This document shows, piece by piece, positions 3,138 to 21,993 of a DNA stretch of 64,000 nt; position 1 is the first letter of the stretch, and every line of letters starts with the position of its first letter. Made by a program: the position numbers and the translations under genes. The notes beneath the pieces are model-generated. The model did no database searches. It saw only the letters and a program-made list of their open reading frames with translations, and was not told where the DNA came from. This stretch comes from Shigella phage Sf20. The DNA is taken from sequence record MF327006; one strand, 5' to 3'.

Positions 3138-3413
3138 TCAGGACATTGCCCGTTTGAATGCGTCCATTATAACAGTGTTATTTGGCTTGTCAACACGTTT
3201 TTGAACTTTATTTTTAAATTTTTTGTTGATGTGGTGTTTACGATAAACAACCTTTTCACGGTTGGCGTAAGCCTCGCGTGCGTCTTTTACCATCAACCAT
3301 GCCTTAGCCGCATCTTGTCCGCTGATCCCGCCAATCTTCTTAGCAATATCAACAAAATTAAGACCGTGGTCTTCGCGTAGCATGTAAACCATTAACGCTG
3401 TTTTCTTGTCCAT
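3138..3413 (-). CDS. hypothetical protein with possible helix-turn-helix (91 aa from internal Met)
   Basis: Start MDKKTAL overlaps the upstream stop by 1 nt (TGATG coupling); NFVDIAKKIGGISGQDAAKAW resembles an HTH. Confidence 0.4.
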   Translation of the reverse strand: MDKKTALMVYMLREDHGLNFVDIAKKIGGISGQDAAKAWLMVKDAREAYANREKVVYRKHHINKKFKNKVQKRVDKPNNTVIMDAFKRAMS

Positions 3414-3610
3414 CACTTCGCCCCATTGACGATTAACAGGATAGTGATCAGTACCGGAAACTGGATCATGACAGTGCCAAAAAACCGGATAAACGCATTT
3501 TCTGATTTCCATACATGACATGCGACTAGCTGATAGACCATTGTTGCAACCAAAGCCAGAAAATACATCTCGATTGGTGTTTCTTTGATCAATCGTACAA
3601 TCTCATTCAT
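3413..3610 (-). CDS. small membrane protein (65 aa)
   Basis: Hydrophobic segments; GAGGTGA RBS. Confidence 0.5.
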   Translation of the reverse strand: MNEIVRLIKETPIEMYFLALVATMVYQLVACHVWKSENAFIRFFGTVMIQFPVLITILLIVNGAK

Positions 3611-17207: not shown

Positions 17208-19333
17208 TTACATTTTAAATTTATCTGGCATTGCGTCTACAGATACCAGGTCAGCGATAAGCTGACGTAGAGTTGCCTTATCTGCTTTCTTACGTTCGGT
17301 TTTAGCTTCGCTAATGAAGCTGGAGAAAGACAGGTCAGAAGCAGGTTTAACAACACCTTCACGGATGAATGCATCACCGTCCGCGATCATCTCGCCAGAT
17401 TCTTGTAATGCTGCCAGTTCATTTTTGTTCATAATATGTGCCTCAATGTAATAAGTTTCTTGTGAATCCGTCGATGCCGTAGCACGAGTTACCGTATCAA
17501 AGGATAACACAACACCGCGAGGAAGTAAAATCTCGCATTCTTTGTAAGCAAATGCTTTGTTACCTACTGGCAAGACAGGGATGTTTTCCGCGCCAGCAAT
17601 GGAGAAAGCAACATTAGCGCCACCTTCACCGCGAGAGCCAGCCATAGAATCAACACCAGCAACGGCACTAGCCACGTTTGCATTCCAGCCGCCAAAAATT
17701 CACCGCGAGAGCCAGCCATAGAATCAACACCAGCAACGGCACTAGCCACGTTTGCATTCCAGCCGCCAAAAATGTTAGGTGCAAGGGAAGTGCTCACATA
17801 GTTTTTAAAGTAAAACGCTTTTTGCTTACGTGCAGTTTCCCACATTTGCGACCGGAAGTCCATACCACGATACAGAATAGTACCCGGATCAAGTTTAACA
17901 CCATAGTTAGAGAAGGCATTATCCAGTGCATCGCACATCTTGACCAATTCTTCTGGATCTGCGATTCCCTCAAACTCTTCCAGCTTACGATCAGTTAGGA
18001 AGTTGTTCATATTGATGTATGCTGCATCGGCATATTCGCTCAACACAAAACCTTCCGCGCCTGGCAGATCAAGATCAATATCTGCCATCATTTCACCCAT
18101 GTTGCTAGCAATTGCTTCAAACATACCGGAGGCAACATTACGTAGGGCATCGGTTTTAATCTGGGTGATATGACTACGCAGCATTTCAGCTTTTACATCT
18201 GCTGGCATAGACTGGTCTACTCGATCCATTGCCAAGGCGGTGATCTTGTTTTCGAATACTTCCTCGCTCATGATTTCTTTTAAGCGTTTGACCGAGGCTG
18301 CGATAACTTCCGCAGACAATGGGTCATATTGATCCTGAACTTTTACCAGTTCGCTTACTGCGTATTTTGCATCGGCTTCGCTTTCAAAAATAGTACGCAT
18401 GAAACCATAGCGAGTGATAATATCACTTGTCCAGTCATTCAGAGAACGGGCGGTTGAACGTTCTAAGGCTTGACGGTCAATCAGAGTATTAAACTGTTTC
18501 TTAGGTTCTGCTTCGGTGATATCTTCTTCCGGTTTAAGATTAATTTTTTCTGGATGATTCACATAGTCGCTGTTATAGGTCGCTTGAGTTTTCAGCATTT
18601 CTTCTTTAGTCAAACGAGATTTAGCCGCTACGCGTTGTTCTGCTTCCGCGTTTCGTTCTTCTTCTGACACAAGACTAGCCGCATACGCCTCATCTTTAGT
18701 CAGAGATTCACCAGTAGCCTTAGATACCCAGCGATCACCTAAATCACTTTCTACTTTAGTGAACAAGGATTCATCAAGTTTAATCCCTTTAATCTTATCA
18801 ATCGCCATCCCGCGACGCTTGACAACAACTAAAGCGATCTTTTTGCTGGTCATTACTTCCTGCTGGAATACTTCAAACTTCGGTGTACGACGCACCAAAC
18901 GCTCTATAACGCGCTTAACCAGTTCGGTCTTACCTTTCATGCGGGATACGTTAAAACGGAACATAACAGCGTCTAATTGAGCTTTACGGGCTGTTTCCAT
19001 AACCACATCAAAAGCACTTGCCATAACTGCAATCGGGTTATCGCCTAGACCATTTTTAAGCTGTATAATACGACCGCTTTTGTTCATTTCGCACAGTACA
19101 ACATGTGCGGTCTTGTCACCCATACGAATGATTTTAGGTGTTTTGTTGGTGAAGTTGCAAAGACGGACAATCACATCTTTATCGCGTGTCTGTACTGCAA
19201 AAAGCTGTTTAGGATTCTGCTTAGGCTTTAAGCACTGTACAGGAGCAATACTGCCAAAGTTTTCTTCCTCTTCCGTCAACAGCCATTTCTCGAAAGATTC
19301 AATCATTAGATCGTCGATTTCTAAGTTAAACAT
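17208..19333 (-). pseudogene. alt: alt ADP-ribosyltransferase, reading frame split by a 74-bp tandem duplication (ORFs 17564..19333 and 17208..17675)
   Basis: Upstream ORF ends ...FKNYVSTSLAPNIFGG...VAGVDSMAGSRGE then garbage; downstream ORF begins ASAVAGVDSMAGSRGE... and carries ECEILLPRG; removing one repeat copy gives a 684-aa protein (T4 Alt is 682 aa). Confidence 0.75.
17625..17772. repeat. perfect tandem duplication, 2 x 74 bp (17625-17698 and 17699-17772)
   Basis: Unit TTCACCGCGAGAGCCAGCCATAGAATCAACACCAGCAACGGCACTAGCCACGTTTGCATTCCAGCCGCCAAAAA repeated head-to-tail; 74 is not a multiple of 3. Confidence 0.9.
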
Positions 19334-19379: not shown

Positions 19380-19400
19380 GGGGCTTAACGCCCCCTTTTT
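19380..19400. terminator. bidirectional terminator hairpin (GGGGCTTAACGCCCC + T-run)
   Basis: GC stem with A-run before and T-run after. Confidence 0.5.
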
Positions 19401-19401
19401 A

Positions 19402-19614
19402 TTATAATGCACCATCAAGCAATTGCTCTAAGGTGTATCCTGAATAGTCTTTTTCAATCAGGATATATTTTCCTACTCGTTTAATACAACCACGCATTTC
19501 AACGTATTCTGCGTAGTTGATGGTACGAGTTGTTCCATCTTCCAGTAATGCAGTACCGATTTCGTTAATGCGGTCATAAGTTACGTCGGTAATGATGATT
19601 TCGATGTTAGCCAT
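19402..19614 (-). CDS. hypothetical protein (70 aa)
   Basis: Internal ATG with AGGAG RBS directly downstream of a palindromic-spacer promoter; the ORF-track start lies inside that promoter. Confidence 0.5.
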   Translation of the reverse strand: MANIEIIITDVTYDRINEIGTALLEDGTTRTINYAEYVEMRGCIKRVGKYILIEKDYSGYTLEQLLDGAL

Positions 19615-19650
19615 TTGATACTCCTTAGTAGTTCGTTTCGGTATGTGTGC

Positions 19651-19679
19651 ATTATAGGGGATCACCGATCCCCTGTCAA
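19651..19679 (-). promoter_or_regulatory. early sigma70-type promoter with palindromic spacer (stem-loop type)
   Basis: On - strand: TTGACA, 17-nt spacer GGGGATCGGTGATCCCC (perfect palindrome), TATAAT; A-rich UP-like tract upstream. Confidence 0.55.
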
Positions 19680-19686
19680 CAACTTT

Positions 19687-20241
19687 TTAGTTATTTTTTA
19701 ATTGTTCATCTTGCAATAATGCAATCACATGCTGGCGATGTTCTTCCGATTGAGGTACACCGAAAAAGTTTGTTTTGTAGAAATACTCTAATCGGTCTTC
19801 TCGTGTGCTCTCTTCCATCATGATCGCGGGTAGTCCGAGATTTCGGAAACGTCGCTTTTCTGCTGGCGTAAAATCACTGTAATACAACATAGAATCATCA
19901 TTACAAGCAATGCTAAACTCATCCTTCATAAAGGAGAATATTGCGTTTAAACGCTGTTTACCGTCCACGATTTCGATCTCATAGCGAGAGCCATCATCAA
20001 TCTTAGCCATTGCGATAGCACCAACCGGAAAATCATTAATCAGGTTTTCAATAAACATACGTTTGTTTTCGGTGTCCCATACTAAAGGACGCTGATAATC
20101 TGGGTTCATGTTGATATAGCCATCTTCTAACCATGCTTCGTAAACAGAGATAACAAAGTTTTTAGTATTGGTATAGTAGCGGCGTTTAGGCGTTAAACGG
20201 TTCATGTTATAGTCTCCTGAATGGGTCATCACGTAAATCAA
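19687..20241 (-). CDS. DUF262 (ParB-like nuclease superfamily) domain protein
   Basis: DYQRPLVWD and IVDGKQRL motifs resemble the DUF262/GmrS N-terminal domain signature (DGQQR). Confidence 0.55.
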   Translation of the reverse strand: MIYVMTHSGDYNMNRLTPKRRYYTNTKNFVISVYEAWLEDGYINMNPDYQRPLVWDTENKRMFIENLINDFPVGAIAMAKIDDGSRYEIEIVDGKQRLNAIFSFMKDEFSIACNDDSMLYYSDFTPAEKRRFRNLGLPAIMMEESTREDRLEYFYKTNFFGVPQSEEHRQHVIALLQDEQLKNN

Positions 20242-20536
20242 TATCTTTTAAGAACTCATCCCATGAATGGCGGATATTGTTCTTAATTCTCCAGATGAGC
20301 GCAGGGATTGAACGCTCTCCCATCTGGAAGTATGGATCATATGATCCGTATGCCCAATATGCTACTACAATTCCACAATCAGAGCAATAGTATTCTATTT
20401 CACTTGCTGGCGACCAAAGTCCATCAATATGATCGGTGATCTTGCTTTCGATGTTATGGCTATGACAATCAGGGCAACGGATGCAATGACCTTGTTTATC
20501 GTAATTTGACGTTAGCGAATACTTAAACAATCTCAT
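20207..20536 (-). CDS. zinc-ribbon protein (two CxxC pairs)
   Basis: CIRCPDC...CSDCG; overlaps the downstream gene start, operon-like. Confidence 0.45.
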   Translation of the reverse strand: MRLFKYSLTSNYDKQGHCIRCPDCHSHNIESKITDHIDGLWSPASEIEYYCSDCGIVVAYWAYGSYDPYFQMGERSIPALIWRIKNNIRHSWDEFLKDIDLRDDPFRRL

Positions 20537-21252
20537 TATAGATCCTTATTTGCTTCAAATACTGCCTTTGCGAATCCTCGCGGGGTAAGTGACCTTATAG
20601 TCTTTGTTTTCGTTCCTTTCCCGCCTAGCTTAGAATGCTGTTTACTGTACCCTTTATTAATCTGCAACGGTTTCTTTTCTGGCATTATAAAGCCTTGTCC
20701 GGTCCATAAGCAAGTCTTTTTTGGGTACATATCACGGGCGGCAATATACTCAGGAAACGTAGGATGCTTATCATCTTCCGGCAAATAACCGCCATATTCC
20801 CACGGATGGAACATATAATCAGGCTTACGCCACATGCTAGAGATAACGCTTACAGGATTCTCTATCATGTAGGGAACTCCTAGCCATTCACCCAAATAAG
20901 CGGTTATTTTAGCTGCCCGTACATCATGAACTTGAATCAATGGTCCTTGTTCTCGTTTCTTTCGTTCAAAGTGCGCAGCGCCACTAACAGCTAAATTGGT
21001 GCACGGTGGGAATGCAAAGATAATATCCGGTTTCCCCCATTCAAGGTCCATTGCTCTTTCCAGCCAGTTCAAATCAATCCATGTGTTTACATAGGTAATG
21101 TTTGGATGTTCAAATCTGGTATTATACTTTTTGTATGTGCCGTGGTCGCCATCATCAGCATTAAAGCAGATCACCTTATGACCTGCTTTAGCCCATTCTA
21201 GCCCCATTATCCCCGATCCGTCAAAGTTACAGAATATTAATTTTTGTTTCAT
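20536..21252 (-). CDS. DNA cytosine-5 methyltransferase-like protein (catalytic core only)
   Basis: Motif I-like FDGSG, motif IV-like PPC (catalytic Cys), motif VI-like ENP, with spacing typical of C5-MTases; no large target recognition domain. Confidence 0.45.
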   Translation of the reverse strand: MKQKLIFCNFDGSGIMGLEWAKAGHKVICFNADDGDHGTYKKYNTRFEHPNITYVNTWIDLNWLERAMDLEWGKPDIIFAFPPCTNLAVSGAAHFERKKREQGPLIQVHDVRAAKITAYLGEWLGVPYMIENPVSVISSMWRKPDYMFHPWEYGGYLPEDDKHPTFPEYIAARDMYPKKTCLWTGQGFIMPEKKPLQINKGYSKQHSKLGGKGTKTKTIRSLTPRGFAKAVFEANKDL

Positions 21253-21494
21253 ATACGCCCCTTTAATCCAACACAGATTTTAGAAGGTTCTTTGCCGTGC
21301 CACATTAAGTAAAGTCCGTTAATGCGGCCTTGTTTTGTATATGATTCTTTTCTGATCTTCTTATAGTGTCGTGTTTCCTCAGCCGATTGTTTAGAATACC
21401 AATCATAAAGGAAGATGAACAAAGGCCACCCATTAGCGGCCTTAATGCAGTTATTCAAAAATTCCTTATTGCGTTTAATTAATTTTCTTTTCAC
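21249..21494 (-). CDS. hypothetical protein (81 aa)
   Basis: ORF translationally coupled to the MTase-like gene. Confidence 0.4.
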   Translation of the reverse strand: MKRKLIKRNKEFLNNCIKAANGWPLFIFLYDWYSKQSAEETRHYKKIRKESYTKQGRINGLYLMWHGKEPSKICVGLKGRI

Positions 21495-21742
21495 GCTGCC
21501 CCCATTGGTTTGATAGTAACAGAATCTAAAAGACCTTTGTTAGCCAGTTCGCGGCAAGTTTTCAGATCCGCAACTTCCCAACCAGCCGCAATCAGGTTAT
21601 CAATCAGGCTGTTAGCAACTTCTTCGCTCATGAAAGAGCACTGTTTGCCGATGGTGTAGCGTACACGCTGTAATTTCAGTTTACGGAAGCCTTTAACGTT
21701 CAGGTCTTTAGCGATTTTCTTTGCGGTTTCGATGTTAGCCAT
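21491..21742 (-). CDS. hypothetical protein (83 aa)
   Basis: ORF with GGAGAATCAAAC RBS and promoter upstream. Confidence 0.45.
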   Translation of the reverse strand: MANIETAKKIAKDLNVKGFRKLKLQRVRYTIGKQCSFMSEEVANSLIDNLIAAGWEVADLKTCRELANKGLLDSVTIKPMGAA

Positions 21743-21782
21743 TGTTTGATTCTCCTAAGTGGTATCTCGTCTTGATGGTTGT

Positions 21783-21811
21783 ATTGTAGGGGAGTTATCC
21801 TCCCCTGTCAA
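21783..21811 (-). promoter_or_regulatory. early promoter with stem-loop spacer
   Basis: - strand: TTGACA, spacer GGGGAGGATAACTCCCC, TACAAT. Confidence 0.5.
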
Positions 21812-21825
21812 CACTTTTTATAAAA

Positions 21826-21993
21826 TTATTTGTTAATTTCTGGTGCGTTGCTAGGATAGTAACCTTCTTTAACACCCAGATATTTTGCAACCATCCCTAC
21901 AATCTTCTGTGCTACTACAATGTCAAATTTCAGATAATCTTCGCCGTGGGTTTCAATGATATATGCTTCACATGCTGCTTTAGTCTCGAACAT
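21826..21993 (-). CDS. small hypothetical protein (55 aa), paralog of 25593..25760
   Basis: MFETKAACEAYIIETHGEDYLKFDIVVAQK... ~85% identical to the 25593 copy; GGAGAATCAAA RBS; below the ORF-track cutoff. Confidence 0.5.
   Translation of the reverse strand: MFETKAACEAYIIETHGEDYLKFDIVVAQKIVGMVAKYLGVKEGYYPSNAPEINK

Follow-up and report, generated by a model that had tools for sequence, protein, structure and literature searches.

A promoter-early stem-loop cassette in Shigella phage Sf20 encoding a putative compact Dcm-family methyltransferase and a minimal ParB-DUF262 protein

In a 64,000-nucleotide stretch of DNA from Shigella phage Sf20 (MF327006; hereafter the window), we analyzed a unit of five minus-strand genes (21742-19687), flanked by two promoter-early stem-loop (PeSL) elements, that encodes a DNA methyltransferase-like protein, RB49p189, and a DUF262 protein, RB49p187. 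The locus is nothing out of the ordinary for an RB49-type (T4-like) coliphage: an early accessory-gene cassette, put together as a mosaic from accessory genes that move independently of one another, and not a system whose parts evolved together. Taken as a whole, the locus is probably best explained as a PeSL-bounded early cassette with an active Dcm-family enzyme in p189 and a minimal, nucleoside triphosphate (NTP)-binding ParB-DUF262 protein in p187, a reading that we hold with some confidence. When compared with GenBank phages by megablast, the region 19400-21900 showed 99.6% identity to Krischvirus RB49 OZ035808.1 and 97-98.6% to about 55 other Krischvirus genomes, among them the RB49 reference NC_005066 (97.9%). 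In the RB49 reference annotation, the cassette genes are RB49p190, p189.1, p189, p188, and p187, just upstream of alt.

The unit begins with p190 (21742-21491, 83 aa), whose stop codon overlaps the GTG start of p189.1 (21494-21249, 81 aa) by 4 nt, and p189.1 in turn overlaps p189 (21252-20536, 238 aa), the predicted compact Dcm-family C5-cytosine DNA methyltransferase, by another 4 nt. A 1-nt overlap leads to p188 (20536-20207, 109 aa), a zinc-ribbon protein of the CxxC...CxxC type, and a 1-nt gap separates it from p187 (20205-19687, 172 aa), a minimal stand-alone ParB-DUF262 domain. All four of the minus-strand open reading frames (ORFs) proposed in a first-pass annotation of this DNA are present, but p190 makes the unit one of five genes, because the promoter sits upstream of p190, which overlaps p189.1. 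The promoter with a palindromic spacer that the annotation had placed before the genes does exist, but it lies upstream of p190 and outside 19687-21494; likewise, the overlap claimed for the genes is found at three junctions of the cassette, but not between p188 and p187. The DUF262 gene had been given a TTG start at 20241 and a length of 184 aa, for which the RefSeq start, ATG at 20205 with AGGAG 9 nt upstream and a product of 172 aa, is to be substituted. Nor is the content new for this gene neighborhood, as had been supposed, since the RefSeq annotation of RB49p189 is already that of a DNA methyltransferase. Further Krischvirus records label p189 as Dcm or "C-5 cytosine DNA methylase", and one has p187 as a "DUF262 domain protein". 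There is nothing categorically new in the locus; the methylase, the DUF262 protein, and the promoter all belong to known families or elements.

Previous work on RB49 and phi1 described the PeSL as a strong early promoter combined with a terminator hairpin, which shuffles ORFans in hyperplastic regions (Arbiol et al. 2010, PMC2839356), and promoter and terminator activity was demonstrated for other RB49 PeSLs (PMC2839356). The two elements flanking the cassette are instances of this published PeSL, with no difference in kind. In the upstream PeSL (21811-21783, minus strand), TTGACA-GGGGAGGATAACTCCCC-TACAAT matches the consensus at 11 of 12 promoter positions, and its 17-nt spacer holds a GGGGAGG...CTCCCC hairpin of -19.4 kcal/mol (z -4.86). 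The downstream PeSL (19679-19651, minus strand), TTGACA-GGGGATCGGTGATCCCC-TATAAT, follows the p187 stop codon, matches at all 12 positions, and has a hairpin with a z of -3.55; the next gene is RB49p185. Throughout the window, TTGACA-N17-TAYAAT with at most one mismatch occurs 17 times, always on the minus strand, against 1.6 occurrences expected, and in several PeSL copies the spacer is of the GGGG...CCCC kind and forms a stable fold (z -3.5 to -4.9). The PeSLs of the window align with one another across about 110 nt, leader and Shine-Dalgarno sequence included. The two flanking elements (19596-19705 and 21724-21835) have the leader, the Shine-Dalgarno sequence, and the first five codons in common, so that p190 and p185 both start with MANIE. 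This likeness runs into the first codons, so that the start of the coding sequence is part of the recombination substrate. An internal promoter-like match (21224-21195) and an internal terminator-like match (21443-21422) were taken as chance, equally many being found in shuffled sequence.

Indels at the PeSLs distinguish the Krischvirus genomes from each other. The window is without the 180-nt gene RB49p186 and one PeSL (at 19618-19686; positions 3216-3534 of the NC_005066 locus), so the match is 2501 bp long against 2748 bp, whereas the RB49 reference and most Krischvirus genomes have this gene and its PeSL in the interval from p185 to the DUF262 gene; the presence/absence polymorphism falls right at a PeSL. 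Phage SAP (OZ034687; positions 1968-2046 of the locus) has, relative to phage TB34, a perfect 79-bp tandem PeSL duplication directly downstream of the DUF262 gene. In a metagenomic IMG/VR Krischvirus, L009, p189.1 is absent and a truncated p190 abuts the methylase gene. The loss of p186, the duplication in SAP, and the loss of p189.1 are as the PeSL shuffling model predicts. In the transcription scheme that we propose, the upstream promoter would be used by the sigma-70 RNA polymerase of the host soon after infection, and five translationally coupled genes would be read in the order p190, p189.1, p189, p188, and p187. The GGGG...CCCC hairpin in the downstream PeSL would stop or attenuate this transcription, and that PeSL would also be the promoter of RB49p185.

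The methylase p189 contains motif I, FDGSG (residues 10-14), the catalytic PPC (82-84), ENP (131-133), a KK pair (178-179), and a C-terminal IRSLTPRGF. The C5-cytosine methyltransferase motif order FDGSG, PPC, ENP, read in the first-pass annotation, is accordingly complete in this 238-aa protein, and the fold agrees with it. In an alignment of 50 homologues, P82, P83, C84, E131, N132, and P133 are invariant, F10, G12, S13, and G14 are at least 90% conserved, and the KK pair and IRSLTPRGF are invariant or nearly so. The protein matches phrog_757 "DNA methyltransferase" at 2e-90, and its family comprises 7,310 proteins and is found in 1,521 phage records, among them those of Drexlerviridae, ~49-kb Klebsiella phages, Vequintavirinae, and phiKO2. 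Its three-dimensional fold is that of a C5-methyltransferase, with the closest structural matches to DNMT3A/3B, C5-methyltransferases that have very short target recognition domains (TRDs). The protein had been described as being without a TRD, a description that has to be withdrawn: about 85 well-conserved residues stand between ENP and the C-terminal IRSLTPRGF, and p189 is a full-length member of a characterized Dcm family. A comparison with M.HhaI by hhalign, for which an approximate M.HhaI sequence was used, gave only a weak match.

The characterized member of this family is the trigger of retron Ec86, the product of the dcm gene (711 bp) carried by phage K42, which is a KarlJaspers (Bas06) strain (bioRxiv 10.1101/2023.08.16.553469). 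The catalytic residues of the K42 Dcm are C82, E128, K175, and K176, and a superposition on DNMT3A was made with its AlphaFold model (bioRxiv 10.1101/2023.08.16.553469). Expression of this enzyme raised 5-methylcytosine (5mC) in the multicopy single-stranded DNA (msDNA) of the retron, as measured by liquid chromatography coupled to mass spectrometry (LC-MS), and no such rise came with the quadruple mutant; that the specificity is CCWGG was an assumption from analogy, backed only by mutation of the msDNA site (bioRxiv 10.1101/2023.08.16.553469). The KarlJaspers genome (MZ501090), to which the K42 genome is 95.4% identical, carries the gene bas06_0055 "Dcm-like C5 cytosine methyltransferase" (711 bp, 236 aa), and p189 is 55% identical to its product over the full length (E 1e-91). 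C84, E131, K178, and K179 of p189 align with C82, E128, K175, and K176 of the K42 Dcm, and the Warwickvirus orthologue gives the same result. Judged by homology, p189 is a bona fide member of this characterized compact phage Dcm family and not a TRD-less relic, because it is homologous over its full length to the active KarlJaspers-type Dcm.

By analogy with the K42 enzyme, p189 is a putative active, compact, S-adenosylmethionine-dependent C5-cytosine DNA methyltransferase. Cys84 would attack C6 of a flipped-out cytosine, Glu131 would protonate N3, and the short DNMT3-like recognition insert would confer site specificity. Most likely, such an enzyme would serve the phage by methylating its own replicating DNA at specific sites and so guarding it from type II restriction by the host. 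In relatives this comes at a cost, for Dcm activity can trip methylation-sensing defenses such as retron Ec86 (bioRxiv 10.1101/2023.08.16.553469). As a separate observation, CCWGG is strongly under-represented in the whole window, with 27 sites against 63 expected from simple base composition, and so are CCSGG (0.24), GGCC (0.25), and GGNCC (0.35), but not CCGG and GCGC. From the site counts, this deficit looks like restriction-site avoidance, and it includes CCWGG, the site assumed for the related Dcm.

The first-pass annotation was right that p187 has DUF262/ParB-like motifs (DYQRPLVWD, VDGKQRL). The protein matches Pfam GmrSD_N/DUF262 (PF03235) with 72.9 bits against a cut-off of 33.2 (E 5e-20) and adopts the ParB/Srx fold in structure prediction. 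The motifs defining ParB-DUF262 proteins are QRxxxW, DGxQR, and FxxxN (PMC12065111), and p187 carries them as motif I, YQRPLVW (residues 37-43), motif II, DGKQR (81-85), and motif III, FYKTN (142-146). In an alignment of 62 sequences, no variation is seen at Q38, R39, W43, D81, Q84, R85, F142, or N146, and conservation at G82 and K83 is 90% or more. In the PADLOC library, the best matches are Menshen NsnA (3.6e-20) and PD-T4-2_A (5e-12); the NsnA match joins residues 13-149 of p187 to positions 47-187 of a profile of 385 and thus covers the DUF262 core only. A profile of the p187 family found BrxU (1.8e-7), other DUF262 structures, and SspE in the PDB. The AlphaFold2 model, with a mean predicted local distance difference test score (pLDDT) of 94.7, consists of the ParB core and a terminal helix only, and Foldseek matched it to PadC, ParB-CDP, Noc, BrxU, KorB, sulfiredoxin, and Osa. 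The core of about 130 residues in the relatives covers positions 12-197 of the 199 in the Pfam profile, and the domain in p187 is therefore complete but compacted, not a fragment.

Beyond this core there is little else in the protein. p187 ends one helix past motif III, and a PeSL follows the stop codon. Searches with Pfam, NCBIfam, and PADLOC gave no DUF1524/HNH match in p187 or in the neighboring genes, which bears out the earlier statement that the DUF262 protein has no such partner. The protein is too short for the middle DNA-binding domain (ParBDB or GmrSD-M), which is absent from the model too, and the cassette has no gene for the Menshen ABC-ATPase NsnB or effector NsnC. With neither a nuclease nor a middle domain for DNA binding, p187 cannot be a restriction enzyme alone, and it is neither a GmrSD enzyme nor a Menshen NsnA. 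Its three motifs are predicted to cluster and bind NTP, and p187 would most likely be a binding protein or a switch that depends on NTP and works early in infection.

An exhaustive HMMER search returned 6,023 relatives of p187, the nearest of which are nearly all 160-190 aa long. In a second group, of about 270 aa (P0146, P0156, P0161, P0168, and P0169), the compact core is C-terminal and is preceded by an extension of about 120 aa; the extension gives a weak Agenet/Tudor-like hint in the 344-aa relative P0169 alone, which has an N-terminal zinc ribbon as well, and DUF262 is tandemly duplicated in P0150. The short DUF262 form was found by tblastn in 301 phage records, including those of Krischvirus, RB43/RB16, Klebsiella phages of the KP15 type, ST64B, and phages of Erwinia and Moraxella, with no T-even phage among the matches listed. 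Bacterial copies lie in the nin-type region of a lambdoid prophage and in a Vibrio mobile element. The stand-alone architecture is already common in databases (phrog_1583), and a limited literature search found no characterized stand-alone phage DUF262 protein. Some short DUF262 genes lie near genes of nucleotide metabolism, namely nudE in RB43 and POP12 and the nrdD/nrdG pair, between which the gene stands, in vB_Mm5; in ST64B the gene is two genes away from a deoxynucleoside monophosphate (dNMP) phosphatase gene. These neighbors may be a coincidence in accessory-gene hot spots.

The linkage of the cassette genes was examined in 80 IMG/VR loci with a short DUF262 gene, each with 6 kb on either side, which were searched with all cassette proteins. 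The methyltransferase, zinc ribbon, p190, or p189.1 was found in two loci, both of Krischvirus, and none of the 78 non-Krischvirus loci has a methyltransferase or zinc-ribbon gene within 6 kb. Clustering of the ORFs in the 80 viral loci yielded no recurrent neighbor of the short DUF262 gene, the clusters reflecting lineage synteny. The closest non-Krischvirus homologues of p187 (vB_Mm5, with 42% identity, POP12, RB43, and ST64B) have unrelated neighbors, and the KarlJaspers Dcm locus has no DUF262 or zinc-ribbon neighbor. The genes upstream of DUF262 in RB43, ST64B, and POP12 were considered as hidden zinc-ribbon or methyltransferase homologues and rejected, since they show no similarity. A Rosetta-stone idea, that the N-terminal ~120 aa of the ~270-aa relatives correspond to p188, was also dropped; Pfam sees only GmrSD_N in the five, apart from the weak hints in P0169, with no obvious likeness to p188, although no direct comparison was made. 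The co-occurrence of the genes within Krischvirus is explained by the genomes being 97-99% identical, and a juxtaposition specific to one lineage is as expected from PeSL-mediated shuffling.

Several points weigh against the account given above. The methylase stays under the Pfam PF00145 cut-off (14.4 against 22 bits, E 0.027, in the N-terminal part only), with a match at E <= 0.01 in 10 of its 50 homologues (best 1.3e-6), and PDB sequence searches with p189 return nothing. HpaII and NheI cut RB49 DNA, and high-performance liquid chromatography-mass spectrometry of the close relative TB34 gave 'no detectable modified DNA' (PMC13390438); any 5mC would therefore be sparse at most or absent in virions. 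RB49 is routinely grown on E. coli B (PMC2839356), and the E. coli B derivative BL21 carries native retron Ec86 (bioRxiv 10.1101/2023.08.16.553469), from which it follows that the specificity of the Dcm differs or that its effect is masked; retron triggering by the RB49 Dcm is not evident, because RB49 grows on E. coli B. The early five-gene transcript is inferred from the sequence only, and the role proposed for p187 is a conjecture. Moreover, the cassette genes always co-occur within Krischvirus (about 56 records), and a Krischvirus-specific functional link between them is formally possible.

These points bear on two rival explanations that involve the methylase. It is unlikely that p189 is something other than a conventional 5mC methylase, that is, an inactive protein, an enzyme with another substrate, or the enzyme behind the modifications reported in SAP. 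In that Krischvirus, 5-hydroxymethylcytosine (5hmC) and glucosyl-5mC were reported, with none in TB34, and the single-nucleotide polymorphism analysis by the authors gave no leads; the modification enzymes of SAP are not accounted for, and Krischvirus is without homologues of dCMP hydroxymethylase and glucosyltransferase (PMC13390438). The occurrence of the C5-carboxymethyltransferase 8yf3 among the structural neighbors of p189 favors this explanation, as do the lack of modified nucleosides detected in TB34 and the cutting of RB49 DNA by HpaII and NheI, which are methylation-sensitive. However, the two enzymes probe two sites only, each catalytic residue of p189 is invariant among thousands of homologues, and the 55%-identical enzyme makes 5mC. 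The modifications in SAP are the same as in the co-studied Tequatrovirus TB37, and SAP is cut less well by BrxU (PMC13390438), which leads us to suspect a mixed lysate. SAP and TB34 have the same coding sequences throughout the operon, which, as far as these go, cannot explain the difference between the two phages and is ruled out as its cause; in the 5.7-5.8 kb compared, the two differ in the 79-bp PeSL duplication, four single-base indels outside the operon, and a terminal alignment artifact. Still less credible is the notion that the methyltransferase, zinc-ribbon, and DUF262 proteins form one DNA-modification module, as the first-pass annotation had contemplated for the first and the last of these, the partners for example targeting a TRD-poor methylase core. 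The genes do adjoin, and are translationally coupled and probably co-transcribed, in all of the ~56 Krischvirus genomes. In phages and plasmids, fusions of a ParB-like domain with a DNA methylase are common, and the zinc ribbon in P0169 points the same way. Yet the linkage fails in the 78 loci outside Krischvirus, the inspected methyltransferase or zinc-ribbon loci never hold the other two genes, and in RB43 and ST64B the genes lying upstream of DUF262 show no similarity to p188. In addition, the K42 Dcm is active when expressed alone (bioRxiv 10.1101/2023.08.16.553469).

The other two rivals concern p187. It is possible, if short of probable, that p187 is an anti-defense decoy or dominant-negative protein against host ParB-DUF262 sensors, which would bind the nucleotide, the DNA feature, or the dimer interface of BrxU/GmrSD, Dazbog, Menshen NsnA, PD-T4-2, or SspE and would offset the liability of making 5mC in an RB49-type phage. 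Such a role is consistent with a sensor domain without an effector whose best defense-library matches are NsnA and PD-T4-2_A, and with a family confined to phages and prophages, where it lies in early or accessory regions. DUF262 systems also respond to C5-methylated DNA: BrxU cuts 5mC DNA, and a phage C5-methyltransferase triggers Dazbog. On the other hand, the p187 family does not track the Dcm family or the phages with modified DNA (its members are found in RB43, in phages like KP15, and in ST64B, and no T-even phage is among the records listed), and the strict conservation of the NTP motifs suggests an enzyme or a switch rather than an inert mimic. An enzyme could serve host takeover or competitor exclusion, and a stand-alone NTPase/pyrophosphatase or ParB/Osa-type nuclease that acts on nucleotides or on host or foreign DNA is a tentative option for p187. 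Motifs I-III are conserved, and the ParB/Srx fold is common to NTPases and to Osa, which also has DNase activity. Osa is listed among the ParB-fold NTPases (PMC12065111). Homologues of p187 are often near nudE, nrdD/nrdG, or the dNMP phosphatase gene, but this pattern is anecdotal and comes from accessory-gene hot spots, and no metal-binding nuclease motif was identified in p187. Ranked by probability, sensor interference comes first among the options for p187, an NTPase or nuclease second, and cooperation with the methyltransferase last, as an improbable one. The reading of p187 as a minimal NTP-binding ParB-DUF262 protein in an early PeSL-bounded cassette with an active Dcm-family methylase remains the one that we prefer.

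The remaining genes of the unit would encode small accessory proteins. By its matches, p190 is a Krischvirus-only ORFan (phrog_14908, 5e-59), which tblastn finds in 56 Krischvirus records only; its residues 12-75 show a weak PADLOC match (2.6e-5) to the C-terminal region of the defense reverse transcriptase RT_UG35. The product of p189.1 matches phrog_7065 (5.6e-38) and has distant homologues, with 36-39% identity, in other T4-like phages and in Salmonella phage records of about 105-110 kb; among Krischvirus genomes, its amino-acid identity is 87.7-98.8%, against about 97-100% for its neighbors. The zinc-ribbon protein p188 matches Pfam Zn_Ribbon_TF below the cut-off (4.7e-4) and phrog_2993 (7e-34), and its homologues in 285 phage records, from Felixounavirus, Nonagvirus, Guernseyvirinae, and Vequintavirinae, have no adjoining methyltransferase or DUF262 gene. 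Outside the unit, the ADP-ribosyltransferase gene alt (17564-19333, minus strand) has an ORF of 589 aa, whereas that of the RB49 reference has 683 aa. When the two are aligned, one single-base indel and what looks like a 75-bp repeat difference are seen near 17625-17775, and a frameshift or an error of assembly could account for the shorter ORF.

As it stands, the locus carries little weight in itself, being a correctly annotatable accessory cassette of a well-studied genus. Its interest lies in the fact that RB49-type phages, usually said to have "unmodified DNA", carry a close relative of a demonstrated retron Ec86 trigger, which predicts interactions with methylation-sensing defenses. The operon is also removed as an explanation of the published SAP/TB34 modification puzzle, since the coding sequences are identical. 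Owing to its conserved nucleotide-binding motifs, the minimal ParB-DUF262 family, widespread in phages, is a tractable biochemical target and a reasonable anti-defense candidate. A bolder proposal, which we consider rather unlikely, is that the short ParB-DUF262 proteins, p187 and its ~300 phage relatives, are a new phage anti-defense class that poisons host sensors with the same domain. If this were true, DUF262 was perhaps recruited beside Dcm in Krischvirus because some such sensors detect 5mC, and the cassette might explain the growth on E. coli B of an RB49-type phage with a homologue of the Ec86-triggering Dcm.

Comparisons of the cassette with known systems bring out where its parts agree with and depart from them. 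GmrSD, BrxU, and GmrS share with p187 the N-terminal DUF262 domain with QRxxxW, DGxQR, and FxxxN; however, p187 has no ParBDB and no fused or adjacent DUF1524/HNH, is 172 aa long instead of ~590, and is encoded by a phage, one with unmodified cytosine. Menshen NsnA and the PD-T4-2 protein A are the best defense-library matches to its core, but NsnA always carries a ParBDB and is followed by NsnB and NsnC (PMC12065111), whereas p187 has the domain by itself, and neither an ATPase nor an effector is encoded next to it. Compared with M.HhaI, M.HaeIII, and E. coli Dcm (PF00145), p189 is ~90-230 residues shorter and its recognition insert is much smaller, and its motif IV reads PPCT and its motif VI ENP instead of the PCQ and ENV of canonical bacterial C5-methyltransferases. 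The KarlJaspers/K42 Dcm is alike in length (236 and 238 aa), in the identity of the catalytic positions, and in that both models are closest to DNMT3A/3B, but it belongs to a Drexlerviridae siphovirus rather than a T4-like myovirus and has other gene neighbors. Finally, the sigma-70 promoter with a GGGG...CCCC stem-loop, repeated between flanking ORFans, and the indels at these elements place the cassette among the published PeSL-flanked cassettes of hyperplastic regions; the published example holds a single ORFan, ORFan210 (PMC2839356), whereas the cassette described here encloses five genes.

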